Made by a program: the position numbers and the translations under genes. The notes beneath the pieces are model-generated. The model made no database searches and was not told the origin of the DNA. It worked only from the letters and a program-made list of their open reading frames with translations. Of a stretch of DNA of 64,000 bases, positions 14,792 to 54,848 are shown in pieces. Each line of letters opens with the position of its first letter. The stretch's first letter is position 1. The DNA comes from Ginglymostoma cirratum (Eukaryota). The stretch lies in NCBI GenBank assembly GCA_024137785.1, contig JAHRHZ010000020.1, positions 51,732,234 to 51,796,233 of the forward strand, written 5' to 3'.

Positions 14792-15111
14792 CTATGAAGC
14801 AAAGACAGAAAAAGTATTCAGCGTGGGTTTGGGAACAAGGCAACTCCTAGCAGAGTGAACCACATTCTTAGTATCTGGGTTAGAAAGGGAAGTGGGGAGG
14901 TGTCTCAGTTAAAAACTTTAGAATTCAAAGGCAACATTGAATCCTGCAGAGCCAGCTTCAGTCTCGATTCTTAACATGAAAATTCCCCTACAGGATTATT
15001 TTAGACTGGTGGCTGCAATTCAGCAGGAGTCACACCCAGAGCCACAGGTCAGGAGATCAACATTTGTGGGATCTTGCAGCGTCCACGATGATTACCATTT
15101 TCTACAATTCA

Positions 15112-15272
15112 GAAAGACAGACAGACAACAGAGAGAGAGGAGAAAAAGAGAGAGAGAGAGAGAGAGAGAGACAGAGGCAGATAGACAGAGAGGCAACAGA
15201 GAGAGCAAGCGAGAGAGAAAGAGAGAGAGAGAGGCGGTGGGGTGGCGAAGAGAGTAAGGAGACAGATAGAGC
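15112..15272. repeat. (GA)n compound microsatellite
   Basis: agagagagag... interleaved with gaca units. Confidence 0.9.
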
Positions 15273-15519
15273 GTAATTCAACAGTAGTTCACTTGCTGGA
15301 AGGAGCTTTGGGATATCCTGAGATTATGGAATGTGCTTCCTAAATAGATTTTCTATTTCTAGACACCTGACTTTCTAAAATTCTAAATACCGTGACAATA
15401 AAGAACCTGAGAATAGATATGGAGTGGTCAGCTATGGCTTCTTGAATTCAAGTCCCAATCCAGACACTTGGCAGCAGAAATTGAGGCTGATATTCCAATG
15501 CAGGACGTAAATTACTTTC

Positions 15520-15725
15520 TCTCCCCACGTCCTGACCAACACTATTCCTCAAATAATAATCACGAAACACAGATTAACCAGTCATATTATCGTATCGCTG
15601 TTTGTGGGAGAAAGTTGCTGTGCATCCTGCATCACAACAATTACTGCATGACAAAAGGATTTAACTGGCAGTGTGTTAGGGGCATTCTGTTGATGCTCTA
15701 GGTACTGTACCAAAGCAAGTCTTTT
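15520..15725 (+). mobile_element. Old Deu-domain SINE (SacSINE1/AmnSINE-like)
   Basis: acagattaaccagtcatattatcgtatcgctgtttgtgggagaaagttgctgtgc...aagcaagtctttt. Confidence 0.6.
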
Positions 15726-16971
15726 GTACCTGGAGATTGTCAAAATCTACAAAATTATTGTTGAAAATATATGCGTAATTTTTAAGGATCTATCAAGGAT
15801 ATTAAAGATATTTTAAGGCTCTGCGGCATACTCAACCAATAAAATCAATTTGCTAACAGCATTTACTTGTTTCTCCCACATATAATTACTTCTAAGTAGT
15901 AGCTAGGTCAGAACATTAGAGCCCAGTTAATATGTACCAATTACTTTTCAGTCCTTTTTTTTGATGCGTGGTGCATCCAAGTTGCTACCAGAACTACAAA
16001 ACATCTCATGCGACAACCACGATGCAAAAATAGCAGTTGAAAATAGCAAATTCCCGAAATACACACCCAGCGACTAAAAAGAGAGCTCGAAGTGAGTAAA
16101 ATGTGTCTTTCTTTTCAGTCATGTAGCATTCCAGATGTGCGCTTCTCAGATTCCTGCTTTTCAATACAAGTGCTAAGACAGGTCCATTCCAGAACCCAGA
16201 TCACGAATAAAACAAATTGCAACATTAAAGAATTAAATACTTCACAGCTCACCTCACCGATCAATTCAAACTGAACACAATCAGGTTAAAGCTAAACAGA
16301 ATCAATTCTGAAGATCCTGAGGAACCTAAGCAAGGTGATCACTCTGGTTTTATGTCCACAATTTGCCATCAGGAAAAAAGATAATACATCTTAGTCACGC
16401 TCACATTTAATTCCCCATGTAGCCAAGACACAACTTAGGATGAAGACATTTCAGGGGAATGCTGTCAGATACAGGTCAATAATTTTTCAAATTAAACCCA
16501 TTTCCAAACTGGTTGCGTATCTAAACTTCCACTTGAGTATTTCTTAACGGTCAGCAATTCACCCCCTAACCCCCAGCCCCTTTGCGACTTTTGTGGGGAG
16601 CTCAGGTAATTAGAGAAAGCATGCCAAGGCTCCTGTCCCCTTCTCAGGTAGCCATGCCCATTGCCAAGTCTACAGTGCAGTAGCTGAGCCTTAATGCACC
16701 CTGTTGAGATTTTAGCTTTCTCAATATACCAAAAAGCAATGATCCCCATTCTATGGAGAATGGTTTTCTCTGTCTTAAGTTAGGAGTGGGTTTTGGAGAG
16801 GATCCTTATCATTTACTTGGCTCAGGGAAAATGTATTTATTTAACCACCCATTCACTTGACGTGACCACCATGGTTAAGAGCAACGTTTAGTACCCATCC
16901 CTAATAGCCTTGAGGAAGTGAAGGTGAGCTACCATACAGCCTACGAGCTAAGTGTATACCCACAGTGCTGT

Positions 16972-18910
16972 TATGAGACTAAACTTGCAGGGAACAAAAA
17001 AATTGACGGCAAAAGCTTCTATAAATATGTGAAGAGAAACAGATTAGGAAAGACAAATGCAAAAATCACAGAATCTCTACAGTGTGGAAGCAGGCCATTC
17101 AGCCTATCGAGTCCACATCACCCTCCAAAGTGCACCTCACCCAGACCCAGACCCATCCCCCTACTCTATCCCCGTAACCGCATATTTCCCATGGCTAATC
17201 CACCTAGCTTGCACATCACTGTCATTATGGGTAATTTAGTGTGGCCAATTCACCTAACCCACACACATTTTTTGGACCGTGGAAGGAAACTGGAGCAGAT
17301 GGAGAAAACCCACGCAGACATGGGGAGAATGTGCAAACTCCACACAGACAGTCACCACGGGCTGGAATCGAATCCAAGTCCCTGGTGCTGAGGCAATGGC
17401 GTTAACCACTGAGCCACCGTGTCACCCAGATAGTCAGAAGCCAGGGAAATTATATTGGGGAACACAGAAATGGCAGAAGAATTTGATACTGTTTTCACAG
17501 AAGAGGACAGAAATACTCTCCCAGAAATAGGAGGGAACCAAGCATCTTGTGAGGAGGTGGAATTAAAGGGAATATTTATTAGTCAGAAAATGGTGCTCAG
17601 GAAATGCATGAGGTTACAGACTAACACATCACCAGGGCCTAACAATCCACAATGTACAGTACTAAAGGAAGCTGCCCTGAAAGTATTGGATACATTTCCA
17701 AACTTGGATAGACTCTAGAGCAGTTCTTACAAATTGGAGGGTGGGAAATGTACTCCACTGTTTCAGAAGGGAGGGAAAAGAAAATAACAGAATTCCAGAC
17801 CGGTTAGCCGAACACCAGTCATGAGGAAAATACTCATCTATTATAAAAGATGTGACATCAGAACATTTGGAAAGCATTAACAGGATTAGACAAAGCTACC
17901 ATGGGTTTATGAAAGGCAAATCATTCTTAATGAACCTTTTGCAGTTTTTGGAGGATGTAACTTGTAGAATATTTAAGGGAGCATCAGTGGACGTGGTATA
18001 TTTGGATTTTCAGAAGGCTTTTGATAAGGTCCCTCTTAGGAAGTTAGCGGGCACAATGAAAGCACATGGGATAGGGGATAATCTTCATTGCACATTGGTT
18101 GACAGACAGGAAACAGAGGGAGCGAGAATGAATGGGTGTTTGAAGTCATACATTTTGGCATTGAAAAGCAGAAAGGAAGGAGATTATTTAACGGGGATAT
18201 TTTGGGGAGCATGGATGATGTATAAGAGATCCGGGCGTCCTCGTACACCAGTCAATGGAAGGTAGGTGCGGGAAGCAATTAGGAAGGCAAATGGTATATT
18301 GGCCTTCATTGCAAAAAAACTGGAGTTCAGAAGTCAGGATGTCTTACTCCAGTGAAGTAGAATAGAGGTGAGACCACCCCTGTTGTGCCATGTGCAGTTT
18401 TCATCTTCCTATCCGAGAGAGAATATACTTGCCACAGACGGAGTGCAGCAGAAGCTCTTTACCTGATTACAGGGCCGCGGTGTGAGGAGGGATCGGCTTG
18501 GTTGGGCCTGTATACACTAGAAGTTAGAAGAATGAGGGGGGATCTGATTGGAACTCAGAGAATTGTAACAGGGCTGGACAGACTGGATAAGGAGAACAGG
18601 TTTTGCCTGGTTAGAGATCCAGAACTAGGAAACGCCATTTCAGATTACAGGATACACAATTTAGGACTGAGGTAAGGAAATATTTTTTCACTCAAAAGGT
18701 AACGAACCTCAGGATTTCTCTACCACAGAAGACTGTGGAAGCCAAGTCACTGAATACATTCGAGACAGAGAAGTTTTTAGATATTAAATTCATCAAGAGG
18801 TGTAGGGAGAAAGCAGGAATTTGGCATTGAGACAGAGGGCCAGTCAGACATTATGAATGACAGAGCAAGTTCAGAAGGGCCAAATGGCTTCCCTTCTTGT
18901 TTCTAGTTTC
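16972..18910 (+). mobile_element. Decayed CR1-clade LINE (ORF2 RT and 3' end)
   Basis: HGFMKGKSFLMNLLQFLEDVT...VDVVYLDFQKAFDKVP; LGLYTLEVRRMRGDLI; CR1 tail gggccaaatggcttcc. Frameshifts and deletions. Confidence 0.9.
17064..17427 (-). mobile_element. HE1-like V-SINE nested in a CR1 LINE
   Basis: Same structure as the other copies; interrupts CR1 ORF2 between KSFYKYVKRNRLGKTN and MGNTEMAEEF. Confidence 0.88.
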
Positions 18911-18949
18911 TCTTCAGGTAAGGAGCTCTACACTTTTGACCTGATAATG

Positions 18950-19700
18950 GTTAAGGAATGCTGATATAGTTCCAAGGCAGAACAGTGCCGGGCTCGGAAG
19001 GGCACTTGCAAATAGCGATGTTCCCAATTTTTTTGCTCCCCTTATCCCTGGAGCTAGCGGGAGTCACAGACTCAGTCTGTGCTATCAAAGTCACCCTGGA
19101 GTCACTGCGTGCCAATGGTGGAGGAAGTGAATGTTTATGGTTGTGTATCCAGTGCCAATAAAGCGGTTGCTTTAATCTGTATAATATTAAATTCCAAGAG
19201 TTGTTGGAGCTGCTCACATCCAAGAAAGAAGAGAATTCTGTCGCACTCCTGACTTGTGCCTCAAAAAGACTCTCAAGCATGCATTTTAGACCTGGTGTGA
19301 ATAAGGCTAGTATTCTGCTTCCAGACATTACACAAATTGTCCACGGCCTTTGGGAAGCTCCAGGGAGGACATGTATTTTTGGTTGTTTATTTAATTTGAT
19401 CTCTTTTTCTCCTGTAGCAAACATCACTGACAAAGATGGGCTTGTGACAGTCGCCAAACCAAAACTTCATGATGCAGCCAACTGTAAACTGAAGCAGTAC
19501 GAGATCTGGACACTGACTCTCGGCATCCATTTGATACCGACCCAGAGTAACAGATTACCACATTATACCCAACCGTTATCTGCAGACACGGGCTCAATTT
19601 CTGTATTTACCAATGATGACACCCAGCTTTATCAGTCCACTTCAACCTTTCTTTGTCCATCTCCGCTTGATCGCACTGCCGAGTTACGGGGTCAGAGATG
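18950..19700 (-). mobile_element. Degenerate LINE 3' portion (same family as 46820-47665)
   Basis: atatagttccaaggcagaacagtgccgggctcggaagggcacttgca is reverse-complement similar to ~47420-47470. Confidence 0.5.
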
Positions 19701-19992
19701 TGAACACCCTTCGCTCCAACTCGTCCAAGCCAACCAGCTGTCCTAAATTCACCTAGTCCCATTTGCCAGCATTTGGCCCATTTCCCTCGAAACCTTTCCA
19801 AATCATATACCTGTCCGAATGCCTTTTAAATGTTCTAATTGTACCAGCCTCCACCACTTCCTCTGGCAGCTCGTTCCATACACGCACCACCCTCTGCATG
19901 AAAAGGTTGCCCCTCAGATCACTCTCAAATCTTTCCCCTTTCGTCTTAAACCTAAACCCTCACAGTTTTGGCCTCTCCTACCCTCGGGAAGG
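19700..19992 (-). mobile_element. CR1 3' fragment
   Basis: cctagtcccatttgccagcatttggccca...ccagcctccaccacttcctctggcagctcgttccata. Confidence 0.8.
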
Positions 19993-21061
19993 GATCTTGG
20001 TTATTTCTCCACTTAGAAGAAATCAGTCCATCTCATTCCGCTGTCCTGAAAGGCACTGTAATTTTCACGCTGAGTATCATATTCTCTTTGGCAGCTCACT
20101 CGGATAGAGCCAAAACTAAAAACACAAAGAAGCCGAGTTTTCATAGTCGATCCCTCACCAAGCCCACCCTCCCTTGTATGCCACCACACCTCTGCAAAAA
20201 CCCTCACCTCAGAGGAACATCGGGCTTTGGAGCAGAAGAAAGCCTTTTAGCACTTAGTGTCTGTTCTGCCATTTACGGCTGTTCTATTTACAGTCTTAAC
20301 TACACTTTCTCTTCTGACCTACCCATAACTTTTGACTCCCTTGTCTATCAAGATCTTACTCAGGCTCATATTTTAGCAACTCAACTGGGCCAAAGTTGTT
20401 CCCTTCAGCTCCCCCAAATCCCTCCTTCACAAACAACTGGCCCTTGTCAAGGGCTGCTCACCGAACATTTCCATCCTCTCGAAATCGCACTACAACCTTC
20501 CCCTGCTCTGATGGTCCGACTCAGTCTTTTGACGTACTGACTCGCAAATTCTTCTCTCGCTCCTGACTGTTTTCAGATGCATTTGAACATAAAAATGAAT
20601 AGCAATTTTATGTGCAAGCTGCCTTCTTCCCAACTGTAGCTAGGACCTTGCGGTACTAGCAATGTCCAGGAACCTGGATAGCAGAAGTAATCTTTGACCC
20701 ATACACTAATTTAACCACATATATGGCCACACTGATTTACTTAGGGCTATTTGATTTGATCAGGTTATTTCTGAAAGAGAGAGATTTTGCTATCGTCAGA
20801 AAATTGGGGTCAAGACTCCACTTAAAGCTGTGCTATGCCTCTTCCAAGCAAATCTATTTGTAAAGTTAAACTCAATTACCCTTTTCCCCAGTAATCACAG
20901 AATCAGCAAACTGCTGTAATGTCAGTCTGCCAGAGCTGGTTTAGGAGCTTTCACTGTGTGGAATCAAATTATTGCTGTCACCTGAAAGTGAATTTTGCTT
21001 TTTAAAAAAGTCTAGCAATCCAAACTTTGATTGAGCGTCCACACCTTTGTGAAAACAACAG

Positions 21062-21762
21062 AATCACAAATATTTTGGCGCAGAATGAGGCCGCTCGGCT
21101 TTGAAAATGAGCATCGTTGTCTTTTCCTCATGCCCCTGCACCTTATTTCTGCTTAAATGATCATCCAATACCCTTTCGAATAAATCATCTGAACCTGCCT
21201 CCACTACATTTCCAGGCAGTACCTTCCAGTCCTGAAACACCCGTGTCAAAATGACTTTTCTTACCACGCACTCGCTTGTCTTGTAAACCACTTGAAATCT
21301 GTGCCCTCTCAAATTTGATCATTGAGAAACTCCAGCAAGTTATGTTGACCACGGTTTGCCTTGTAGCAAATCAATACTGACTCTCACTGAATCAACCCAG
21401 CCTTTTCTATGTGGCAACTAATTCTATCCTAAAGTCGTTTCTATAAACTTCCTGTAATTTCTGCAATTCTGTAATTTCTGGGATTATCTTCACAAGCTTT
21501 AGTTTGAACTTGGGTTTAATGCTTGCGATTGTTCAGTCTTCTGGAACCTCCCCCCCAGTCAAGGAAAGGTGGAAAAATTACAGCCAGTATTCTGCAACTT
21601 CCTTCAATACCCAGTTTCAGTGCCTTGTCAACTTGAAGTACCAACATTTGCTCCAACAGCCCTTCCCTATCAATTCTGAATCCTTCTCATGATAAAACTT
21701 GCCTCTTCTGTCACCAGGGCTTTGGTAGAATCTGGCTCCACAGTAAAGACAGATACAAAGTA
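21062..21762 (-). mobile_element. CR1 fragments (3' end and RT region)
   Basis: MRGHRFQV...WKVLPGNVVEAGS on the minus strand, followed by ttgaccacggtttgcctt...aaatca RT-type sequence. Confidence 0.65.
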
Positions 21763-21895
21763 TTCAGAAATTCTGAAAAGGGTCCCGAGCCGAAACGTCA
21801 GCTTTCCTGCTCCTCTGATGCTGCCTGGCCTGCTGTGTTCATCCAGCTCCACACTGTGTTATCTCTGACTCCAGCATCTGCAGTTATGCTATCTC
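21763..21895 (+). mobile_element. Short hammerhead-type element, subfamily A
   Basis: ctgaaaagggtcccgagccgaaacgtcagctttcctgctcctctgatgctgcctggcctgctgtgttcatccagc...ccagcatctgcagtt. Confidence 0.8.
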
Positions 21896-22040
21896 TGCAA
21901 AGTCTTTGTTTATTTTTTGGTTGCGCCCTGTCTCTAGATGAGAATACAGAAATAATGCACCACGGTACAGTAGAGATAGGTATCCTCACATATTAATTTT
22001 GAAGCTCGTCCAGTAAGCGGAAGCAAGCTTCGGAAATGTG

Positions 22041-22145
22041 CTCTGAAGATGGGCCGCTGGACATGAAGCATTAATGCTGTTTTCTCTTCACCAGATGCTG
22101 CCAGACCTGCTGAGTTTTTCCAGCAATTTGTGTTTTTGTTTGGTT
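22041..22145 (+). mobile_element. Short hammerhead-type element, subfamily B, degenerate
   Basis: ctgaagatggg...cagatgctgccagacctgctgagtttttccagcaatttgtgtttttgtt. Confidence 0.75.
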
Positions 22146-23659
22146 TTGAAATGGGTTCTGATCAGTAGACATAGATTCCCAGATCACAAATGGTCTTTCT
22201 TCACTATTTATTCATTCCCAGAATTTTAAAAAAATGGTCACGTGGACAGAAAATAGTCAGAAAAGGAACGTGCTGTTCAGCCAACTTCTGAGAGAAAGCT
22301 GTCAATTCCTCATTAGACCCTTCTTCAATGGGGCATCAAGTTGACTTGGTTTGTAGTAATATGGCAGAACAAGAAAGTGGCCTACAAGTAGGGGAGCATC
22401 AGGAAATAGTAATCACAACATAACTCGGCTCACCACAGAAATAGAAAAAAGGAAAAGAAGTCAAAAGCTACATGGAATAGCAAATTATAGTTTTTTTTTT
22501 AAGTCTAGCTGTCTGGCACTAAACTCAGAGAAAGCAGCAAAGAGAATTCTAGACGTCCTTCTGAGGTGAACACCAAAGTCTGCAAGAGAGTTGATTCATT
22601 GAATGCAATGAATACAGTAAAGTCTATGGACACCAAGAACATCTGAGTTATAGCCCGCAAGACGTGTGCTTTAAAACAAACTGCACCTCTCAGCCAAGTT
22701 ATTCCATTAGTAGCAATCGACCCAGCAATGTCGAGAATTATCCACATTATGTCTTCGGTCTCTGAATCGCAGGACAGATTGAATCTAATCAATTGTTACT
22801 CCACCAGTCAGCTCTTAATCAACATAAACATGACGAGTCCTCAACCGTGCTGTCACGCTGCACTTATTCACCAATAACCTGCTCACTGACACTTATTTTG
22901 GATAATGTCGGAGCACAGTAAAACTGTTTCCCAACATTTGGGATGGTGGGGGTGCAAAAAAGACAGCTGAATTTAGATTTGAATGACTGCCCTTGACAGC
23001 AGCATTTGACAACATACGGCTTCAATTCGCCTCAGCAGAATGTAGCAGGAAGACTCTTCAGTGGAGACAGTCACACCGGGCTTGAAGACTGGCGTTCGCT
23101 GATCGTTCAGAGCACTGCTGCAGGAGTTCCTCAGGGAGAGCTGGAACTCCAACTATCTTTGGTTTTCATCAGCGCCCATCCTTGTCCAAGATCAGGCGCC
23201 GAGTAACGACAGCATCACTTTCAGTTCCATTCGCAAATCCTCAGATAATGAGGTAGTCCATGCCTACCCTGCAGCAAAACCCGAACAACTTCCAGGCTTG
23301 GGCTAACCAATGCTAAGTAACTTGCCCCAGTCCTTAAAGATGTCAGTTTTTCTGGACAAACTTCCCACAAATGCAACATTCTAAAGTTCTAAACCTGTGT
23401 GACTTACTTATGGATTCTCTCTTCCTTCAAACAGTTCAAAATATCCACTTGCTGAATTATGCACACCTGGGGTCTCCATTAAAAAAAACACTACAAAACT
23501 TTGCATAATTGTAACAAGGCGAAGTAGCACTGAAGATGTAGCTGTGCTAAAAGTGAATTAAAATTAAGTGAGCAAAAAGTAAATGAATGCTACTGTCAGA
23601 GGATTGTCATGATGGAGTTATGACCATCAGCAGAGAGACAGCAAGTGGATCGGGCAAGG

Positions 23660-24230
23660 ATTCAGCAGATAATCAGGAGGGTAAACGGAATGTTGATCCT
23701 TATTTCATTGGGGTTGGGAATATAAAGGTATGGAAGTCTTACTGCAACTGTACAGGATGCTGATGACAGCACACTGGAGTACTCAGAGCAGTTTTGGCCC
23801 CCTGATTTAAGAAGGGTAACATTTAATTGGAGGCAGTTCAGAGAAGGTTCACTAGGATGACCCCTGGTATGGAGGCATTCTCTTATGAACAAAGGTAAAC
23901 AGCGTAGGCCGCTCCTCACTGGAATTTAGAAGAATGAGAGGTGATCACTTTGAAACCTATGGGATTCTTCAGGGGCTTGAGGGGGTAAATACTGAGAGGG
24001 TGCTTCTCCTCATGGGAAAGTGTAGGGCCAGAGACTTGAGTTTCTTTGAAACTCCTTGCCAAACAAAGTCAAGGAGGCAAATTCCTCATTAGTCGGGGTG
24101 TCTAAGGTTATCGGAAAAGGGCAGTAAAGTGGTTGCTAGAAATGTTGGATGAGCCACGTGCCTATTGAATGACAGAGCAGGCTGGATGGTCCAAAAAGCC
24201 TACTCCTGTTCCTATGTCTTATGGTCTTAT
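23660..24230 (+). mobile_element. CR1 3' fragment
   Basis: cacactggagtactcagagcagttttgg...gaggcagttcagagaaggttcactagg...agaagaatgagaggtgatc...tactcctgttcctatgtcttatggtcttat. Confidence 0.85.
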
Positions 24231-26275
24231 AATGCAAAAATGAGCATTTTGAATCATTATAAAAGCATGGTTACTAAGATCTTAGTCAGACTGAAGTTAT
24301 TGTCGGGGTCAGTTGGCACAAATCTCGTCTCAGTCAAAGAGGTTTTGGGCTCATGAGCTCTCAGGAGGCTTGAACAAACAATGTAGCCTGAGAGCCAAAA
24401 GCAGCATAGACTGCGAACCTCCAGAGCTACTGGACTTTGGATGCTAATCAGAAGCCCCTTTGGCAGTCCCAGGCAAAATTAAAAAGATCCCACTGCATTT
24501 TTTTGAAAAAAGGAGTGTGGGACATTATGAGGTTATGCAACATGCTCTACGAATGGGAAAGTGACTTTTTTTTTTGAGAATAACAGATCTGAAATGCACT
24601 GCCTAAAAAAGGGTGGTGGAGGCACATTTGGTACTCATTTTTCCCAAAAGAGAATTGGATACAGACGTGGAAATTTGAAAAATTGCAGGGATATGATGAA
24701 AGAGGGGCAAGGAAACTAAAGCAAACCACTGTAAATGTTGAAAATTTGAAAAAAAAAAACTGAAAATGCCCAAGAAGGCAAGCAACAATTACGGAGTTAG
24801 AAACAGGATCAACCTTTCAGGTTGATGACCTTTCATCCATTGGAATGCCTCCAAGCTGCCAGTATAGAAATGCCAGGCCAAATGCCTCCATCTGTGCTCT
24901 CTGACTAACTTATAATAATCCCCAAAGATGGGAACAAGGGAATCTGCAAAAGAAACACCAGATGTTTGGGCTGAATTTTTTCAAAACTCCAATAATTAGG
25001 TCAGGGTTATAAAAACTGGCAAGTGCGATCAGAGCTTCTTAAAGTGGAAAACCAGATTATCTGGGAAATATCTGGCCAATCTTTTCTCAATCATTGAGAC
25101 ACAAGTGGTATCCATCGCACAAGGTGAAATTATCGAGAACAGGTAGAAGAATGAATTAATCACGGTCCTTTACCACATGCTGGATCAATCTTCAAAGGAA
25201 TAAGAGGTGCATGTCTTACTGTGTTTTTTCCTGGGCAACACAATGTTCTAAGATGGCTGAAGGTGGAGGTCAAAGGTCACAATCTACAAACAGTGCCAAA
25301 AAGCATCTTGGGATTATTCCCTCCAAATTTTGCCTTCTTTTCCAGTTGACTTTACTCAATCGCTTCGAAGATGTCAGGGTGTCTGACCCTTGGGGAACAT
25401 ATATGCACAAAGGGTGCTCCCTTGTTAGCCAGTAAAGGAGGAGGCTTATTCAAGACATTGATTGCAGTGACAACATTTCAGCAATATTTCTTTTAAACAC
25501 ACACTCGATGGTCTAAATACTATGTACTTCATCATTTAGAAAATAAAATTATCATCAATTATTCTCATCAGATGAATACCGCAGTAGCCAAGTCAAGGAA
25601 TTCAACTAGTCATCGGACTCTCAACCATAGCGTCTAACCATTATATCGCAACAGTGACTTATGTCTATTCAGTCCAAATCCAGACAATAATGAAGACAAA
25701 ATGGGGTTTAAGTCAGGAAATTGAAAAACAATTTCAATGCATTAAAAAGAAACAATTTGAACAACGTGAGATTCTACAACACTGCTGGGTTGAATTCATG
25801 ATTTTGGTGAGCAGTCACTCCTTCCCTAAACTTTCGTTGTAATTGTACTCACCGTCTGATTTGGATGGGTGAGACAGAAAGCAAAGTTTTCACATCTTAA
25901 AGCATGTCTGCCCCCGTTAGATGAAATCACTATGGTCGATTTGCACGGTGTGGATCTTCCCCAGGATTGCTTTGTGTCGTTTGCGTCTAATTTACAAGCC
26001 AAGAATCTGTGGCCTTGTGAATGGCAACAAAATTTGGCCACAGTGATGTCATTGTAACCGCACTGTACCACAAGAAAGACAAGTGTAGTGCCGACACACT
26101 AAAAGACTAAATTCGGTTTCACTGCTGATTTTGGCCCCCATGCTCTTGAGAAAACAGACTCCTGCCTTGATACTGTCTGCCATATCTTGACCGACTGACA
26201 AGTGCTTGTGAACGAATCTAGGCAGTGAAGGCAACTCTAACACTGGGGACTGCTCAACCTTAAGTTCCAGTCCAC

Positions 26276-26641
26276 ACAGAATCAGAATCCCCACAGTGCA
26301 GAAGCAGGCCATTCAGCCCATCGAGCCCAAACCAAACCTCTGAAGGACATCCCACGCAGACCCGTCCCCTCAACCTTATTCTCTGTAACCCTGCATTTCC
26401 TTTGAATCATACACCTAACCTGCACATCCCTGGACACTACGGTTAATTTAGCATGGCCAATCCACCCAACCTGCACATCTTTGGACCGTGGAAGGAAACC
26501 GGAGCACCCGGAGGAAACCCACGCAGACACGGGGAGAATGTGCGAACTCCACACGGACACAGTCGCCCAAGGGTGGAATTGAACCCGGGTCCCTAGCGCT
26601 GCGAGGCAGGAGTGCTAACCCCCAAGCCACCATTCCAGCCC
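26276..26641 (-). mobile_element. HE1-like V-SINE, CpG-retaining
   Basis: ggaaaccggagcacccggaggaaacccacgcagacacggggagaatgtgcgaactccacac. Confidence 0.9.
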
Positions 26642-28699
26642 GCATCTACAACAATCAGGAGCATAAATCCTGACCAGGCCTTCCTCCATAGTTCATGGTC
26701 ACAGTAACAGATCAAGTACCCCTTAGCATCAATGCACCAAACCCAATAAGCTAAATTTTTTCGACAAAACAGGCACGGCAAAATTTGGAAAACATTCAGC
26801 AGAGGTGAAGACAGTTTCAAAATGCATGCATCATCGATCCGGCAATCTTTGATAAGGAGAACGGACCCTTGGAGGTTCTGTCTGGAACACTTAAGTTTTA
26901 TCAAAGCTTTAGGCCTGATTTCGACAAACAAAACACTTGACCTTTTATGAAACATAAGCCTTCTCCAATATTGAGTGATATGAACGACTGAAATTATTCA
27001 ATGTGGGCTTATCCCGTGTTTGTCTCTACTTAACGCACGGCAGGGAGAGTGATCTATTCTATATATAAATACACACTTATTAAAATGTACCTTTTGGAAG
27101 TCAGCCAAATAACACAATAATGAAGAGAGTGGTAGAGACATAACTAAGAGTGCTTTTAAATTTAGACATCATAAACTTCTACACTGAAGTCCTTGCCAGA
27201 GTTATAGACAGTGATTTTCTCCAGAGATGGTAGACATTAAATATGACGGTCACAATGGGATATTGAGCAACAACAGTGGTCGAGCCAGCTTTCACAGCAA
27301 AATGTCAGTTTGACATTAAAGTATGAACAACGAACAGACACCTACAGGATCATTAAGGATTCGATTAATGATTAAACTACCAACTGGTGAGTGTTAAAAG
27401 AGGCACCAGAATATTTTGGTGTCTAGTGCTTCAGCTAATGTCTTGACATAAAGATGACCAGTTGATCAGGTATAAGTCATTGATTGAAGAGTTTGGATGC
27501 TATTTAAAAAGGCACACACAGCTCAAACTATTGACTTGTTGCTAGGGTTTTAAAGACAACTTTTGAGGCACTTTGGGAGACTCTTTGGGCAGTTTGTCAA
27601 GACTGTACCAAGATCACCAACACTTTTACAAGAAATTCACTGAAACCTTCGCCTACTCCACCTCACTAGTCAGTATTCAACTGTAGTAAGCTCGCTACGG
27701 GTCCACTTCCGATGAGGAACGGGAAGGTGAGATAGAGCAGGGCCAGGCAGCATGAAGAGAGGGGGAAGAGGACGGACTGGAGCATGTATGGACTCCGACA
27801 CTCTTCCCTCCGGATCGCCATCATCAGGCCATCTGGTGCTATTTTGAAGTAAGTGCACAACCTCGCCCACTGTCCATGTGCCAATATGAAACATGGCATG
27901 AAGGGTCAGTCAGCATATTCCACCCTTTCAGTGCACGAGGGTGCAAGTGTGGAGACTACATATGCCAGTCCACAAGAATTGATGGAAATCAGTACTTAAC
28001 TGCTGAACCTGCCGGGGTCTTGTTTTAGCACGTCCAAGCCACATTTATATCAGTAAGCAGCAATTAACCCCAAATGGTGTGCTAAAACCGTACTTATTTA
28101 ACACAGAATCCACTTGCTTCAACCTTCCTAAAAAAAAAATCAGAAAATGTCTTGACTTTGTCCATGATTCAAATAAATTGCTGCAAAGGACACAAATCCT
28201 TGGAAGCACAACGAGATAAAAAGTAATTTAAGATTCTATTCTTTTAATATGCATTTATTGTATTGGCAAAATGATTCTATACAGCTTTCATACATCTACT
28301 TTGGGACTTTAGTGAGGTGTAGAGAATTTAGTTGTCAAAACTTAGTTGTTGTAGTTTGTCAAAGGCTGAGCTGATTGGGTGTCAGATCTCATCGATGGGT
28401 GACCTGTTGAGAGGTGGCAGCTAACATATGGGAAGTGCTCAAAGTATTCCAGAGACGGAGAATGCTTTGACCCCAGCTATCTCCATGCCACTATGAAGAT
28501 GACAACCACAGACAGACATGACACGCCATATGGGACAACCGCAGGGCCGTTGCTCACTGCGCATGCAATTTGCGAGCCTTGCTCGGTCTCGTCAATTCTG
28601 CAGACTGGGGGCTCAGACAACATTAATGTTACCAAACCAAAACTCAAAGTAAACCTGGTCGGGGTAAAAATCCCACACTCGGTCAATGTTGAAGGAGAT

Positions 28700-28930
28700 A
28701 CACTGGATTATGCTACACAGTGAAGGATGGTAATAAAGGAAACAGAGCAACCGGTTTGCACACAGCAAAGTCCCAGGAATGTGGCAATGACCAGGCATAT
28801 TGTTTTTGTCATCTTGGTTGAAGAATAAATACTTTCCATCACATCGATGTCGATTCCTCCAATTTAAATCAAAGAAGCATCATAAAACCTTTACCTCCAC
28901 CTCGATTAAACATCTCTACCTCCGAGTCAG
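28700..28930 (-). mobile_element. Old Deu-domain SINE
   Basis: tttgcacacagcaaagtcccagg...aatgaccagg...tggttgaagaataaata. Confidence 0.5.
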
Positions 28931-29339
28931 AAAATTGTACAGTTAAGTGTTGCCAATAGAGATATGGTTGATATTGGTATTAGCGCTCGCATTAGGAGAG
29001 ATTTTAAGATGTGGTAAACCACAATTTTGAAAAAAAAAAACTTAAAGGCATTTGATCAATTTAATTATTCCTACCAACACAAATCATATTCTTTCCCCTT
29101 TCACCCAGTTAATTAAACAGATTTCCTACAGGGTTATTGATGGTAAGTCATGCATTAACGCAAAATAGCAGGCAGTAACAGGACAAGCACTAATCTGCTT
29201 CAAGCTGTGTTTAATATGGGCTAGCTTCTGAAATGAGTTAGACTTGGGCATATATCTTACAAACCAAATTGAGCAGCTGCAGACAGATTCCAGCAACTCA
29301 AACCTTTGGGGCGAGACAATTAACTATTGCGTTGTCTGC

Positions 29340-29550
29340 CCATGGAACTATTCTGAGGCAAAGGAGTTGGCCTCAGTCTCCTGATATTTTGTCCGTCAGC
29401 TAACATCAAAATTCAGCTCACTGCCCATTGTGGGAGCTTCCTGTGCACACACTTTCCTGCATTCCACTTTGAAATTACTTCATTGGCTGTAACGCATCTT
29501 GGGATAACCTAAGGTCACCAAAGGTGCTGGGAAAGTTCAAAGCCTTTTTA
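29340..29550 (+). mobile_element. Old Deu-domain SINE
   Basis: tgtgggagcttcctgtgcac...tacttcattggctgtaacgcatcttggga. Confidence 0.55.
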
Positions 29551-29769
29551 TCTGTGGGTAGTGCCACTTTGAGCAGCAAAGGAATGGTTCTAGATATCTT
29601 CTAAGTAAGCATCACCAGACAGACCAGGAGAACTGGTCTGGTCCAACAAGACAAGGGTGACTTCCTGACTTTTTCTAAGGCTCCAAGAACACAAGCAGAA
29701 AAGGAAACAGCGAAATGACAAATAGCCCTTATCACTGGCCTCTCGATTTAATCTAATCAGCTCAGAAAA

Positions 29770-30170
29770 GAAAAACATTATTTATATAGAATTTCTCATG
29801 ACGACCAGACATCTCGCAGCACTTGAAGCTCTACTTGAAGGCTCATCATTGTTAAAATTTAGGATTTATTTAATGCCTTTCACAATTTCAACAAAGCCGA
29901 AAGCAAACCAAATCAACTCTGCCCAACATCGCACGTTTGCGCAAATTACAACGACTGGATAATATTTTTTAATAGTGTTGATTGAGGGAGGGACGTTAGT
30001 TGGAGAATACGGCACCAATTCTGCTTTTTTTTGAACTCTCGTGTTGGATCTCACCCAGTCACCTGAGACAGCAGATGGAATGTCAGTTTAATGTCTTATC
30101 CAAAAGACTGCATGCCTAAGAGCACAGTATTCCCCCTGTACTCTGCTGGAGTAACAGCCTAGATTTTATG
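29770..30170 (-). mobile_element. Old Deu-domain SINE
   Basis: gtgttgattgagggagg...tcacctgagacagcagatgg...gtttaatgtcttatccaaaagac...agcctagatttt. Confidence 0.5.
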
Positions 30171-30324
30171 AGCACGCTCAAGGATCGCACTGGTAAATAA
30201 AAATGAGCTCAAGCAATGCTTGGAGATTGTCTGCATCCTATTTAGAGCTCTTAAATGCGAGGACAATTAATAAATGGCTGACAAAGCCAGACTAGAGGTC
30301 AGCAAAGTTATAGATATTTTAAAC

Positions 30325-30405
30325 CCACCAGAGCAGACATGCCACTGGAGCAGATGGGACTTGAACCCAGAGGTAGGGACAGTAGCATTGTGCCACAAGA
30401 GCCCT
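30325..30405 (-). mobile_element. tRNA-derived SINE head (second family; related copy at ~33275-33358)
   Basis: Minus strand agggctcttgtggcacaatgc...gggttcaagtccca, with A- and B-box-like motifs. Confidence 0.55.
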
Positions 30406-30413
30406 AAAAACAA

Positions 30414-30637
30414 GAGATAACAAGCATGGGGCTGGATGAACACAGCAGGTCAAGCAGCATAACCTGACGTTTCAGGCCTAAACCCTTCATCAGAAATGGA
30501 AAATTAAAATTTCTGATGGAGGGTTTAGGCCCGAAACGTCAGGTTATGCTGCTTGACCTGCTGTGTTCATCCAGCCCCATGCTTGTTATCTCGGATTATC
30601 CAGCATCTGCAGTACCTTTCATCTCTGATACAATTTC
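30414..30637. mobile_element. Palindromic head-to-head hammerhead-type element with 15-bp TSD
   Basis: 84-nt arms at 30414-30497 and 30509-30592 (2 mismatches). Flanking direct repeat agccctaaaaacaag at 30400-30414 and 30638-30652. Confidence 0.9.
30466..30493 (-). ncRNA. Minimal hammerhead ribozyme motif in the left arm of a palindrome
   Basis: Minus strand reads CTGATGA-A-GGGTTTAGGCCT-GAAAC-GTC. The mirror copy at 30513-30540 (+) reads CTGATGG-A-GGGTTTAGGCCC-GAAACGTC. Confidence 0.65.
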
Positions 30638-31064
30638 AGCCCTAAAAACAAGCCAGCTTTCACTTCTAAATGATATTGACTGGGCACTAATCCTGGATAA
30701 TGGTGTTCATAGTGAACAGGTGTCCAGTTATATACAAAAAGGGAGCTTTAATGTTCCCAGTAAAGCTCGAAGCAACAAGTCACCTTCAAAACCATCTATC
30801 TGCATTTCATTAAGTTTGGCACCAAGGCGCTTCGTCTGCGGTACATGACACTGCCAGACCTAGACCATTTCCCTACAGAAAACAATCATTAAAGTCACAA
30901 CCACAGTATAAATATTATGACTTTTACTGAAGGTAACTGAAATGATGAGGGATTTTTAAAAAAAAAAACATAAAATGGGAACTGGTCAAGGTAGCAACTT
31001 CACTGACAGAGTTCACATTTCAGATGCAGCAAGAAAAAGAGAATTAATGTGTCAGAGCTAATGA

Positions 31065-31190
31065 TTAAAGGCCACAGACCCGAAGTACTGATTCTGCTTT
31101 CCTCTGCTCATCAGAGCTGCCGCACCTGCTGACCATTTCCAGCATTTGTTGTTTTTATTCCAGATTTCCAGCAGCCGTAACATTTTGTTT
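31065..31190 (+). mobile_element. Short hammerhead-type element, subfamily B-like, old
   Basis: gacccgaagtactg...gctgccgcacctgctgaccatttccagcatttgttgtttttattccagatttccagca. Confidence 0.6.
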
Positions 31191-33976
31191 CGGTAACAGG
31201 GGAACAGTTGCCTGCCCACAAGAAATTTTGGTGCTGAGCAAGGTGATCTCAGAATCTCAGAAGCACCTCCCCACCTCCTGAGAGCACCACAGGATGAAAC
31301 TGCAGAAGTAAACACAGCATTGTAGGGATGTAGATGCATTCACATGTCCTGACAATCTGTACTAGGCAGGAATCTCCCTCCAGTCGTTTTATGCAACATG
31401 CACTAACTTAACCAGGTCATGCTTTCCTACTGCTGGTGGGTTCCCTTCCAGGATGCATTTGATTTTCTCAACCCAAAAAGAAACCGAAATAATTTCTACA
31501 GTGAGACCAGATAATATTACAGTGTCCAGAGCTTAACACATTTCCTTCTGTCACTGAAGGGCAAGCTAAAAAGCAATGAATTAGGACGCACTCCAATGCT
31601 TCTCCCACTATAGACCAAAAGAAGTCCAAGGTTGATATTAATTAAGTGCTCGCTCTCTGCATTAGATTGTTAAATCATTCCTGTTCCAACATTCTATCAG
31701 GTTGAGTATCACATCTAATAACTCAATTAAACAGCGGGTTGGAGAAAAGTACAGTTTGCTCATTGCAGCTTCTGGTCCATGAACTTGACTACATTGCAAT
31801 GTAATGTGATTCAACTCACCCCAACCTTTCTCCTTTGATTACCGGTGTTTGGTGGATGAATCAAAATTGTTGTTTTAACCCTCCCCCAATACCTATCCCA
31901 CGTGTACTTCTCAACCATTTTCCTATTGTTTATCTTGATTAGCATGCCTTCTAATGTGCAGACATCACTTGGAGACCAGTGTTACCACACCTGGGTTATC
32001 CTCGACTCTCCAAGATGTCGGACTTGATTCCTCATGTGTCCTTTACTGCTGAAGGACAAAGCAAACTCAAACCCATATTCAAGCTTCTTCATGTTGCCAA
32101 GTCCCAAGTAAAGTTAAACAGAAGTAACCTTTCTCCCCCTCCAACTCGTAAATCAGAGAGGGCAGGAAGTTAAGGCAAATTCCTTATTCTCTTCTTCAAA
32201 TTGTGCTCTGGAATCTTTTATGGTGATCTAAGAACGGCAGGTGATATTAACTGTAAATTAATTGTGTTTAGCTGTATGTAGATGGTGGGGATTAACAGGG
32301 AATTCACCTGAGCCCCGATCTATAGAATGCTCAGAATAAAAACGCAATACTTGGGTTAAGAGCCATATGCTCGCAGTGCCTAACTCTAAATAAACGTAGA
32401 AGGGAATAAGTGTTGCCTCTGATGCACTCCATCACCAACTAACTTTCCTGAGGAGGTGGAGGTACAGGAAGGTGGATTAAGGTCACAACCAGACCAGCTA
32501 CGATCTCACCAAACAGCAGAGCAAGCTAGACAGATTGGTTGTCTTGCTCCTGTTTCTCGTGATCTTTTAGTAATACATGGTAGCAGAGAACGACTGCCTG
32601 AAAGATGAAAATTGAAAGTTCAGAAATAAAACTTTTAGACTGGAAACTATTATCTTAACAGTCATTGTGAAAAACGACAGGAAGCAGGTATAAGCTATTG
32701 GCCTATGATGACAGTCCAATGCTCCCAGACTTTCAAACACATGGTCAATGGAAGAACAAAGTGGATTTGTGGACAGGGTTACCAAAAAAAAGTAACACAA
32801 GTTGTGACCTTGGCACTGTTCCTTCCTTTAAGCAGTGAAATCAGAAGGAAAGCATTTCATGAGCTCAATTTCTGTCAGTTGAATAGTGAGGAAGGATTAG
32901 GCTGTCATGCAGAGTTCTTGTGTGAAATTTACAAAGAGGACGTCCAAGAGGCATCTAAGAGGCATGGAAAGACTTCTGCCTGAACTGATATTTTTCAGAA
33001 AGCATAGGAATGTATCCAATTCACCAAGTGGAAAAAGAAGGGCCCATCGCAATAGCAGGCGTTCTAGGTGGCAGAAGGAGACGGGGATGATTTTACAAGG
33101 TGAGACCAGCTATCTGAATTGCCCACAATGTTCCAGAATCTAATTGTGGTTTAAGTGATACCATTGTAATTAGTGACTATGGTACTGGTAAATAGTTGGT
33201 GTTCTGATAAACAATGATTCCAGACAATGTGACAGGTAGCAAATTAGAAAGCAAGGGACTGTCAATATATTTTTTCTGAGTCAACATCCCAGGTGGGACT
33301 TGAACCTATGCCTTCAGGCTCAGATTCAGGGACATCACCATTGTGCCATAAGGGTCCTACGTTGGCTGTAAACTTAGAGTCAAGGTTAAAATACCTATAG
33401 TCAAACTCAGAGCAGTGGTGCTCAATGGGCGTTGGTATTGGGACCACCTATTCACAATTTAACACATAAACAATTTGTAGTGGGGAATTTAAAGCACAAT
33501 TTCCATATTTGCATTTGACAAAATTGGCAGTACAATCAATCCGAAAGAATACTGCAAAAAAATTGCAAAAGCGTATGAACAAACTCACTGAAAGGTCATG
33601 CCACTGGCAAATATAGGTCAGCTTGTTGAGGTGCATTATGATGGAGGGCTGAGCTAATCCTCTTTAGAAAACTAAAAGTCCAAATAGGTTGAGAAGCTGA
33701 GGGATCGAAGAGTATTAGTTTCACAATTCATGAAAAGTAGCATCATGGTTTAATATTAACATTTCAAAATGCAACAAAAATATTAGGCTTCACTTCTGGA
33801 GAAAAAGCACTGAACACCAGAAAAATCTTACAAAAAAAAACCATGATCACTTGATGCTTGTTGGGCCATGAACAATTTTGGTATCCACATTACAGGAAGA
33901 ACGTAGGGGCACTGGAGATCATGAAGAAAGAACAAATACTTGGGTGATACCGGAATTCAGAAGATACAACTCTCAC

Positions 33977-34096
33977 GTAGGTGGGTTAGCCATGGTAAAA
34001 AGCCCATGCAGGGTTACGGGAGCTGGATGTTCTGGGTGGAGGATCAGTGCATGATCGATGAGCCGATGGCCTCTTTCTGCTCTGTATGGATTCTAA
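33977..34096 (+). mobile_element. HE1-like V-SINE 3' fragment
   Basis: gtaggtgggttagccatggtaaa...gatggcctctttctgctctgtatggattcta. Confidence 0.65.
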
Positions 34097-34099
34097 GAA

Positions 34100-34485
34100 C
34101 AGTCCCAGTGGAATACAGACAAGCAAAAGGAGACGAATACAGGTTGGCATCCTGCTGGAGGTAGCGGAAATAGGCAGCTAATGATCCTGTGGAGGGTAAC
34201 AGGGTGATAGGTGAGGACAAGGGGGTCAACTGTTGCTGCTGTGGGAGGGAAGAGAGGGGTGAGAGCCGAAGTGCAGGAACTGGGTTCCTGTCAACCAGGG
34301 TGGTGGGGAATCCTCGGTTGAGAAAGAAGGTGGACATGTTGGTGGCCCCCTTGTCCAAGGTGGCATTGTTAGGACAGATGCAATGGAAGTGGAGGAACTG
34401 GCCAAATGGAAGAGAGTCTTTTTAGGAAGCAGAGTGTAAGGATGTATCATAAGGTAAGTTTGGGAATCGGGAGTAGTCACTAATA
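34100..34485 (-). mobile_element. Penelope-like internal fragment
   Basis: DKGATNMSTFFLNRGFPTTLVDR; the DNA is reverse-complement similar to ~1980-2210. Confidence 0.75.
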
Positions 34486-34647
34486 ACTTGACCAAAGAAG
34501 CAGCAATGAGGAGCCCAGGCCAAACAACAAAGATGAAGAAGTATTTGCATTTATCTTCAGCTATAAATATCGAGAGGATGATCCACCTCAAGCATTGACA
34601 ATCTGCATCTTCAGCCAATTCGAATCGCACCACGTGATATCAAGAAA

Positions 34648-34983
34648 TAGAACACAGAACATAGAACAGTACAGCACAGTACAGGCCCTCGATGTCGTAC
34701 CAAACTTTTACCCTAAACCTAAGGTCTATCTAACCTCCACCCCTACCTTACACTATCATCAATATGCCTATCTAATGGCCGCTTAAATGCCCCTAACGAG
34801 GCCAACTTCACTACCGTCTCCAGCAATGCATTCCACATCCCGACCACTCTGAGTAAAGAACCTACGTCTGACGTCTCCCCTATATCTACCTCCACTCACT
34901 TTAAAACTATGTCCCCTCGTAATAGCTACCTCCACCCTAGGAAAAAGTCTCTGACTGTCCACTCTATCTATACCTCTGATCAT
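34648..34983 (-). mobile_element. Well-preserved CR1/HER1-like 3' end
   Basis: MIRGIDRVDSQRLFPRVEVAITRGHSFKVSGGRYRGDVRRRFFTQ; short-repeat tail agaacacagaacatagaacag. Confidence 0.85.
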
Positions 34984-35505
34984 GGCTGAACAGTGGGCAT
35001 GGTAAAAGGTGTCGCCTCCAGCAACATTACAGAAATAGTACTGAAGATGTGTTCTCCAGAACTAGCTGCATCTTGAGCCAAGATGACCCACTGAAGCTGC
35101 AACGCTGGCATCTGTCCAACAACATGAAAAATCACCCAGCTACGTCCTGTTGACAAAAACCAGGACAAACTCCATCTGGCCAATTACTAACCTACCAACC
35201 ACACTCAACCAGCAGAATGATAGAAGCTGTCTTCAACAATGCAATTATTTCACGCTGACACTGCGATAATCTGCTCACTGATGTTCAGTTTGGCTTTCAC
35301 CAGGATTCATCATTTCCAGGCTTCATTATGGCTTTGGTCAAAACATGGGCTAAGGGGTTGAATTCCAAGATGAAGAGAGAGTGGCTGCTTTAGATGTCAA
35401 GGCAGAAGTTGACTGAGCACGGCATCAAAGAATCCCAGAAAAACGGAGATCTTTGGGAACTGGGTGAAAAAAAAATTTCATTGGTTGGAGTCACGTTCAG
35501 CACAA
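34984..35505 (+). mobile_element. Degenerate LINE RT fragment
   Basis: gtactgaagatgtgttctccagaactagc...cagtttggctttcaccagg...gctttagatgtcaaggcag (QFGF and ALDVKA remnants). Confidence 0.7.
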
Positions 35506-36134
35506 ACTCCACTATTGTGCAATTTCTCTTTGCGTCATTTGCAAACAAATGACCTTTGAAGAACTTAAACTGTGGTGCACTTTCCCAACCGTAGCCTACG
35601 TCCAGCAATGTCCAATCTGAATTATAATAAAATCTAATTTATAACCAAGGCAGCATGAAACTTTTGACATCTAATAAGTATTATAAATACTGACCACTTT
35701 TAAATAAAGGGAGCAACATACAGTATTGGATGGAGTACATTTTGAACAATGAACAATATATTTCAATAAATATTATGAAAAGTAATTTTTTGAAACCAAA
35801 GTGTCTGTTCGGTCAATTCTGCACAAGTTGTTAGATGTAGCCAGCTGCAAGTGAGGTCAGTGTAAATACGGAGGACTGTATATTAGGCCTGCCATTAGAT
35901 ATTTACAATTTAAAATTCCAGGCATGTTAAACTCCTAAAGGATCGGCCAGATCATCTGTTATATCAACTGTACAACATTACTGCAAACATCTGAGAGATT
36001 CCATGTGATTCATCTGAAATATACATGGTGCCAGACAGTTTCTCAGAAATCTTCACATTGTGCAGAAATAATAAATGATGAGTTAAAAGACCAAAGCTAT
36101 AAACAAGGCATACCAAAATCCCTTCCAAACTTAC

Positions 36135-36224
36135 CAGATTGGGTCTGCCGCCAATAATGTTAAATCCAAGAGTGTCATTTTCTCGATGTAGCACTATAGT
36201 TAACGATTTTGTTTCACCTTTTTC
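36135..36224 (-). CDS. PDZRN4: PDZRN4-like coding exon 2 (start of PDZ1)
   Basis: Encodes [30 protein letters not shown] (90 nt) with the GLGF-type loop LGFNIIGG. Acceptor ttttccttccgaaaag|GAA, donor CTG|GTAAGT, phase 0/0. Confidence 0.9.
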
Positions 36225-46269: not shown

Positions 46270-46820
46270 AGAGATCGCAGAGCTCTGCGACTCAATAGAT
46301 CTGGGCTGCCGTTGTGCATGAATCATAAAAGATTAGTCTGCCGGCACAGCAAGTAATTTGGAAAGATAATAGATCGTGCATCATAGGGGAACTGAACACA
46401 AAGTAGGAAGGTTGTCCTTAAGTTACACAGGGAATTGGCGAGATCTCCTCTGGTATAACTGCATACGGTATTGATCACCCCCTTTAAGGAAAGGTGTCAA
46501 TGCATTGAAAGCAATTCAAAAAGGATTTACCAGATGAAAACTTATAGATTCATACAGCACAGAAAAGGCCCATCAAGTCTGCACCAACATAACTACCACT
46601 AAAGGTGTGCGAATCCCAATTTCCTGCACTTGCCCCAGATCCTAGGAGTTGGTATGGCGGGTTGTCTTCGGAGGATAAGTTGCAACGGCTAAGCCAATAT
46701 GCATTGGAATTTAGAAAAAATAAGAGATGGCTTGACTGAAACATATAAAATCCTGGACAGCCTTGGCAGAGTAAGTGTGGAGAGTATGTTTCCTCTTTTG
46801 AGAAAATCCAGAACAAGAGT
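46270..46820 (+). mobile_element. CR1 3' fragment(s)
   Basis: LEKIRDGLTETYKILDSLGRVSVESMFPL remnant. 46545-46645 looks like an inverted CR1 tail piece. Confidence 0.65.
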
Positions 46821-47665
46821 GACAGATACTGAAGCAGTCCATGTTCAAAAGCAACAAGATCTGGACAATTTCCAGGCCTGGACTGACAAGTGGCAAGTGA
46901 CATTCGTGCCACACAAATGCCAGGCTATGACCATCACCAATAAGAGACAAGCTAACCATTGTCCCTTTACCATCACTAAACCTCCCACTATCAACGTCCT
47001 AGGGGTTATCATTGACCAGAGACTCAACTGGACTCACCACATAAACACAGTGGCTACAAGATCAGGCCACAAGCTAGGTATACTGTGGCGAGTAACTCAC
47101 CTCCTGACTGCTCAAAGCCTGTCCGCCATCTACAAGGGACAAGTCAGGAGTGTGATGCAATGCTCCCCACTTGTCTGGGGGAGCGCAGCCCCAACAACAC
47201 TCAAGAAGCTTGACACCATCCAGGATAAAGCAGCCCGCTTGATTGGCACTACATCCACAAGCATCCACTCCCTCCATCATCAACCCTCAGTAGCAGCAGT
47301 GTGTACTATCTACAAGATGTGCTGCAGAAATTCACTTAACATCCTCAGACAGGACCTTCCAAACCCACGACCACTTCCATCGAGAAGGACAAGGGCAGCA
47401 GACATATGGGAGCACCACCACTTTCAAGTTCCCCTCCAAGTCGCTCACAATCCTGACTTGGAAACACATTGCCGTTCCTTCACTGTCGCTGGGTCAAAAT
47501 CCCGGAAATCCCTCCCTAATAGCATTGTGGGTCAACCCACAGCAGGAGGACTGCAGCGGTTTAAGAAGGCAGCTCACCACCACCTTCTCAGGGCAACTAG
47601 GGATGGGCAAGAAATGCTGGCCCAGCCAGCGACACCCACATCCCACAAATGAATAGAGAAAAAAA
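46820..47665 (+). mobile_element. CR1/L2-group LINE, 5'-truncated, open C-terminal ORF2 frame
   Basis: QQDLDNFQAWTDKWQVTFVPHKCQAMTI...VLGVIIDQRLNWTHHINTV...IYKGQVRSVMQCSPLVW...LDTIQDKAARLI; tail aatgaatagagaaaaaaaa. Confidence 0.88.
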
Positions 47666-54712: not shown

Positions 54713-54848
54713 AGAGATCATAGGAACTGCAGATGCTGGAGAAGCCGAGATAACAAGGTGTGGAGCTGGATGAACACAGCAGGCCAGGCAGCATCCTGCT
54801 CCTATGATGCTGCTTGGCCTGCTGTTTTCATCCAGCTCTACACCTCGT
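54713..54848. mobile_element. Collapsed palindromic subfamily A element with 16-bp TSD
   Basis: A minus-strand copy is joined to a plus-strand copy with both cores missing. tatccatgtattagtc at 54697-54712 and 54849-54864. Confidence 0.88.

Follow-up and report, generated by a model that had tools for sequence, protein, structure and literature searches.

A head-to-head pair of hammerhead-bearing pLTR copies inside one TSD in an intron of Ginglymostoma cirratum

The palindrome and its host intron

The window, 64,000 nt of contig JAHRHZ010000020.1 (assembly GCA_024137785.1) from which all positions are numbered, carries a minus-strand gene of the RING/TRAF-zinc-finger/PDZ type, which we take to be PDZRN3/PDZRN4-like. 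Its exons lie near 41180-40488, 36254-36136 and 14791-14681, and these positions bear out the first-pass annotation, which had placed the insert described here in intron 2 of the host. The features of the locus are as follows.

14792..36135 (approximate bounds), minus strand: intron 2 of the host gene, placed by its flanking exons
30400..30414, no strand: left TSD, 15 bp, a direct repeat whose last base is common with the short arm
30414..30499, minus strand: short (no-tail) arm, in the sense orientation of the host pre-mRNA, covering the pLTR from start site 1 back to its fixed 5' boundary
30463..30497, minus strand: minimal type I hammerhead of the short arm, nominal cut after 30466, assigned by comparing the sequence with features described in PMC4209133
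30500..30508, no strand: junction filler between the 5' ends of the arms, with a local AAAATT repeat, locus-specific
30509..30592, plus strand: the portion of the long arm mirrored by the short arm, with the same 14-nt deletion and A>G change
30509..30543, plus strand: minimal type I hammerhead of the long arm, nominal cut after 30540, assigned from the sequence
30593..30637, plus strand: one-sided tail, the interval between start sites 1 and 2 plus a few bases past the latter, which continues into the ORF start in longer copies
30638..30652, no strand: right TSD, a direct repeat

Sequence comparison confirmed the palindrome. Its arms, 30414-30497 and 30509-30592, are head-to-head, are identical at 82 of 84 positions and are separated by a spacer of 11 nt. 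A single exact 15-bp direct repeat (30400-30414 = 30638-30652) encloses both. Base 30414 is at once the last of the left TSD and the first of the left arm, and the short arm extends 2 nt further in the 5' direction than the tailed arm. The insert is asymmetric, as the one-sided tail at 30593-30637, 45 further bases of the same repeat including bases past start site 2, sits between the right arm and the right TSD. Among 50 sister loci the most frequent TSD length was 14.

The orthologous site was also compared in a related species. Contigs from three studies, with flanks approximately 5.6% different, join 30414 to 30650 with seven letters between them, and this joint exceeds a clean single-TSD empty site by about 10 letters. 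The relative thus lacks the whole insert. The absence of both arms together indicates that they arrived in one insertion event, after the species split, and with the one TSD around both arms this agrees with the single event proposed from the window sequence.

Folding of the RNA, which had been suggested as a check on the palindrome, gave a z-score of -22, and none of 200 shuffled sequences folded as well. In a 451-nt context the dominant predicted fold of the host-sense strand is a hairpin, in which the host pre-mRNA would form an 84-bp stem with one G-U pair and one A-C mismatch, the latter at minus-strand A 30487. This supports the earlier suggestion that the minus-strand (host-sense) core is sequestered in a long hairpin. 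Such stems suit ADAR, and A-C mismatches are its favoured sites; it is plausible that the predicted hairpin is an ADAR or Dicer substrate. As a possible ADAR footprint, 101 young arms contained 21 A>G against 11 T>C changes, all 21 of them at four recurrent sites resembling sub-lineage alleles. The contigs of one presumed-RNA run matched the repeat only. Since the insert is absent in the relative and has thousands of equivalents, there is no hint of a selected function. The insertion is likely to be dead now, and the locus itself is an ordinary and probably inert scar. Thousands of such long hairpins, intronic and elsewhere, are a predicted source of dsRNA.

Other repeats occur in the window. 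An older head-to-head pair of the repeat that forms the insert, with both arms apparently truncated downstream of the ribozyme and a tail on one side, is found at 54711-54836, and at 426-511 the young subfamily is represented by a solo copy with neither tail nor deletion. Decayed frames at 1380-2506 and 46693-47652 resemble, by eye, another Penelope-like element and a LINE reverse transcriptase. A different short repeat at 31074-31195 resembles Rfam Hammerhead_II weakly on its minus strand, scoring 20 bits against a cut-off of 37.

Hammerhead motifs and the parent element

The hammerheads were identified by hand against the minimal-motif features published in PMC4209133. Rfam at gathering score gave no hits in the window, so that the hammerheads went uncalled, and an E-value search at the palindrome returned no hammerhead match. 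A miRNA gene at the palindrome was considered and rejected, the only matches being to generic miRNA hairpins and far below the cut-off.

A hammerhead core on each strand had been proposed, and one is indeed present on each, but both carry a substitution at a conserved position. In the plus-strand core A9>G at 30519 breaks CUGANGA. The minus-strand core retains CUGANGA, GAAA and NUH, but its G10.1-C11.1 pair has become G-U (C11.1>U) by a CpG transition at 30474; the pair is intact on the plus arm. The extra base after A9 and the palindromic ACGU helix III are found in both arms. The core is intact in typical copies of the family, and the 29-nt ribozyme core has 32,144 exact copies in the genome.

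The minimal dimeric type I hammerheads of metazoan PLEs, as described in passages of PMC4209133, are alike in the extra base between 9 and 10.1, the GGG/CCC stem II and the loopless palindromic ACGU helix III. The two copies here differ from them in being damaged and in lying on opposite strands, which makes a tandem dimer impossible in one transcript. The same source reports that a single minimal motif tested in vitro gave no cleavage, and it is therefore unlikely that either core is active now. Ribozyme cleavage was also rejected as the source of the arm 5' ends. The cut site lies some 30 nt downstream of where the arms begin, and the ends of truncated arms show no spike at it, with about 5 of 100 listed truncated arms ending there when scored by eye. 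Cleavage by the ribozyme probably has no role in insertion.

The repeat unit was identified from its position at other loci. At one sister locus (L028) it lies downstream of a GIY-YIG ORF (PF01541, 25.1 bits, cut-off 22.6) and a 3' UTR. At other loci it lies upstream of an ORF and runs through the tail into the ORF start, about 167 nt after the ribozyme start. The unit is thus found at both the 5' and 3' ends of the ORF, at different loci, which identifies it as the pLTR of an endonuclease-bearing Penelope-like element. On these sequence grounds the insert consists of two pLTRs of a GIY-YIG Penelope-like element, each with its hammerhead, placed head to head, and the link to Penelope drawn in the first-pass annotation is borne out. 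A Cys-x4-Cys-x2-Cys linker was seen by eye before the GIY-YIG domain at L028, and the parent element is probably Neptune-like.

The inverted 5' copy, one-sided tail and TSD, which are the traits of EN+ Penelope-like insertions, are all present. The descriptions of EN+ Penelope insertions in PMC3846280 (Pen2a_Av) and Fig. 2 of PMC8557442 agree with the locus in the head-to-head pLTRs, the palindromic junction, a one-ended tail of 30-40 bp, the single TSD and the pLTR hammerhead. The insert differs in having no ORF between the arms, and is thus a minimal form; its TSD class, about 14 bp, is longer than the 8-10 bp given for Adineta. The architecture of the palindrome is itself already known. Non-LTR retrozymes, as defined in bioRxiv 10.64898/2026.07.22.740005, are likewise non-coding, hammerhead-bearing and derived from PLE pLTRs, but their units are arrayed in tandem, head to tail, and two or more complete ribozymes lie on the same strand. 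By that definition a retrozyme is ruled out here, where the units form an inverted pair.

Arm ends and junctions across the genome

Exact 12-mers on both arms located 4,096 head-to-head centres genome-wide, and the control none. Centres of the young subfamily numbered 1,470, some double-counted where an N run splits the centre, and there were 1,167 centres in which one young arm was truncated. Young palindromes are frequently interrupted by a run of N that has a copy of the centre on each side, which makes counts of the youngest palindromes unreliable. The junctions ranged from an overlap of two bases to fillers, 20 bases long or longer, that had been copied from sequence close by.

Of 206 arms, 157 have their 5' end no more than 5 nt from a single boundary at the 5' edge of ribozyme stem I, although most pairs were chosen by patterns needing a short centre, which favours a fixed 5' boundary. 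The same boundary is found in solo copies and, where a pLTR precedes the ORF start, in 6 of the 10 that were intact (the remaining 20 of the 30 loci lacked an intact core there). It reads CCATTTC, which we take to be an initiator-like motif; on this basis the boundary would be the 5' end of the RNA. A splice acceptor has been reported at this boundary in D. virilis; here no AG is present at it.

The other ends of the arms fall into two classes: untailed arms stop near +94, and tailed arms at +128 to +139. Solo copies used both, with 6 short and 7 tailed ends in the 13 rows that were free of N. In the palindromes the two classes were paired. Patterns with one tail matched 1,752 and 1,817 times (3,569 in total), and the two-tail pattern 113 times compared to about 777 expected under independent choice, figures which are approximate because the three patterns searched across the genome draw on several subfamilies and do not nest strictly within one another. 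The two-tail count is moreover inflated by compound insertions, in which the direct arm continues into the ORF; these made up 5 of the first 15 two-tail matches, and the far end, visible in 3 of the 5, was untailed in all three. Of the first 50 of the 4,096 centres, 48 could be scored, and 47 of these had one tailed and one untailed arm, one had both tailed and none had neither (the script gave 46/1/3; two damaged tails were re-scored by eye and 2 of the 50 loci, with N, were set aside). One short/short palindrome was seen, outside the 48 scored loci.

The tail is called optional or often one-sided in passages of PMC3846280 and PMC8557442 which carry no pairing counts. A quantification of tail/no-tail pairing was not found in the literature searched, which was mostly open-access work. 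What may be new to print here is limited to the figures for how the ends pair, for nesting and for shared templates.

Several loci had other structures. Compound copies (L079:1233-1598; L221-L249) consist of the pLTR start, the tail and a variable piece of the ORF start, followed by a jump to the 3' pLTR; that of L079 lies inside one TSD. They suggest frequent template jumps along one RNA. At the centre of L128 each arm has a tail and the mirror symmetry continues into the flanks, a larger inverted duplication around the element which may be a rearrangement or an assembly error. In the left arm of L163 a copy of the target site interrupts the tail, as if synthesis had jumped between both ends.

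Templates and origin of the inverted pair

The two arms have in common a 14-nt deletion and the A>G change. The deletion had been described as private to them. It is common to both but is not private, as the exact deletion motif occurs four times in the genome, in the two arms here and in single copies at two other loci. Those two copies have A where the present arms have G. The A>G change is itself rare, with 179 exact undeleted copies against the 32,144 of the exact core, and no other copy combines the deletion with G. Six further BLAST matches were inspected for a larger deletion sub-lineage; none had this deletion and one had a different one. The occurrence of both rare features on both arms argues for a common template history, as had been proposed. 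Elsewhere, G was seen on both arms in at least five head-to-head neighbour pairs, by eye, among the first 100 of the listed G copies. A rare variant was common to both arms in 16 of 108 pairs, compared to 1.5 (maximum 6) in 1,000 random pairings, although later gene conversion may create shared variants. For these counts 13 of 132 palindromes were dropped because of N, and 11 of the remaining 119 because of truncated or poorly aligned arms.

The insert is a single insertion, and we consider it likely that it arose when reverse transcription was primed from each of the two ends left by a staggered cut, near the 5' end of the element's RNA, and the cDNAs were joined head to head. The DNA would be cut with a stagger of approximately 14 bp to give two ends, one priming at the tail start site and the other about 36-40 nt upstream, on the 5' pLTR. 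The two cDNAs would extend about 95 and 135 nt to the presumed RNA 5' end, and would then be joined head to head, presumably by end-joining with microhomology and short templated fillers. Both arms may have been read from one RNA molecule or from two transcripts of one source locus. As different indel alleles on the two arms need two templates, one RNA cannot be the whole rule, and templates of both kinds seem to occur.

The first-pass annotation had favoured copying of one arm from the other. In such a fold-back, or self-priming, which is also proposed in a passage of PMC3846280, the cDNA would reach the RNA 5' end, snap back and copy itself into the second arm. This would account for the shared deletion and A>G change at this locus, where the arms are too alike to discriminate, even though the short arm has 2 nt more at its 5' end, so that the proposal is still compatible with the insert. 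The most frequent truncated junction fits a 3-bp snap-back, and equally the joining of two cDNA ends. As a general mechanism the proposal did not stand. A fold-back copy must lie inside its template, but of 103 tail/no-tail pairs (loci from the two-tail search, and five pairs without a tail/no-tail script score, were dropped before this count) 65 had 5' ends within 4 nt, which does not discriminate, 19 were nested and 19 were not, ie half of the 38 asymmetric pairs were non-nested, widely so in some (eg L060, L108), with the caveat that later deletions at the centre may turn nested pairs into non-nested ones. Multi-site indel alleles were discordant between the arms in several pairs (L072, L089, L090, L178; also L013, L020, L029), and in 4 of 17 unbiased young pairs the alleles differed. 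The short end is, moreover, a primary end. Short-ended solo copies are about as frequent as tailed ones, and many short/short palindromes would be predicted, but none was seen at the 48 scored loci and one elsewhere. We regard fold-back as improbable. The same discordant alleles, and several palindromes in which just one arm has the rare A>G or an internal deletion, would be expected if the two ends were always primed on two RNA molecules, the likeness of the arms being due to one active source locus per cell or to later conversion. Strict tail/no-tail pairing would then be unexplained unless the complex were asymmetric anyway, and no productive source was seen, no other copy having both the deletion and G; two RNAs in every case is an unlikely rule.

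The thousands of copies of similar size with TSDs might also be read as a non-autonomous palindrome that propagates itself as a single mobile unit, in the manner of a MITE or a retrozyme. However, the centre junctions and both outer ends vary from copy to copy, the genome holds no second copy of the deleted palindrome, and the units are head to head rather than tandem, all of which make this very improbable. An assembly artefact, or separate insertion of the two arms at the same site, can scarcely be credited. No read or contig of the window's own organism was found to span the palindrome, and runs of a possibly conspecific organism covered the flanks too thinly to bridge either junction, but one TSD brackets both arms, contigs from the three studies of the relative lack them together, the junction is unique, and the arms have two rare changes in common yet differ at two positions.

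Two-ended priming, the reading we prefer, has a biochemical parallel in the Poseidon element PAc of Anolis carolinensis. According to the passages on this element in PMC11167929, the PAc protein cuts and extends both target strands in vitro, starts at two internal sites with the interval between them forming the tail, and is predicted to be a dimer; the template RNA is uncleaved and ribozyme cleavage is unneeded. The insertions described here would be alike in the two internal reverse transcription starts that bound the tail, the extension of both strands and the uncleaved template. In those passages the two target strands show no difference in start site, a point against the reading, and ends are not matched up event by event.

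The origin of inverted pLTRs and one-sided tails is called undefined in the relevant passage of PMC8557442. As a tentative extension of two-ended priming, with something less than an even chance of being correct as a whole, we propose that an asymmetric dimer complex, in which each target end has its own start site and usually one RNA is used, leaves one tailed and one untailed end in almost every two-armed insertion. The inverted pLTR of all EN+ Penelope elements would then be the cDNA of the second end, and the 5' edge of the hammerhead the start of transcription. Occasional pairs with mixed alleles would come from complexes holding two RNAs, possibly paired via the palindromic helix III. 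The present locus is one of thousands of fossil products which constrain how Penelope-like elements form inverted pLTRs and one-sided tails. The counts predict one tailed and one untailed end per event, mostly from the same template, and this is testable in the existing in vitro system.

The two elements are not identical in layout. In PAc, as described in the same passages of PMC11167929, the hammerhead also lies near the pLTR-ORF junction, but the ORF starts inside stem II and not downstream of the ribozyme as it does here, and the Neptune-like cysteine linker before the endonuclease is a further difference of the present element from PAc.
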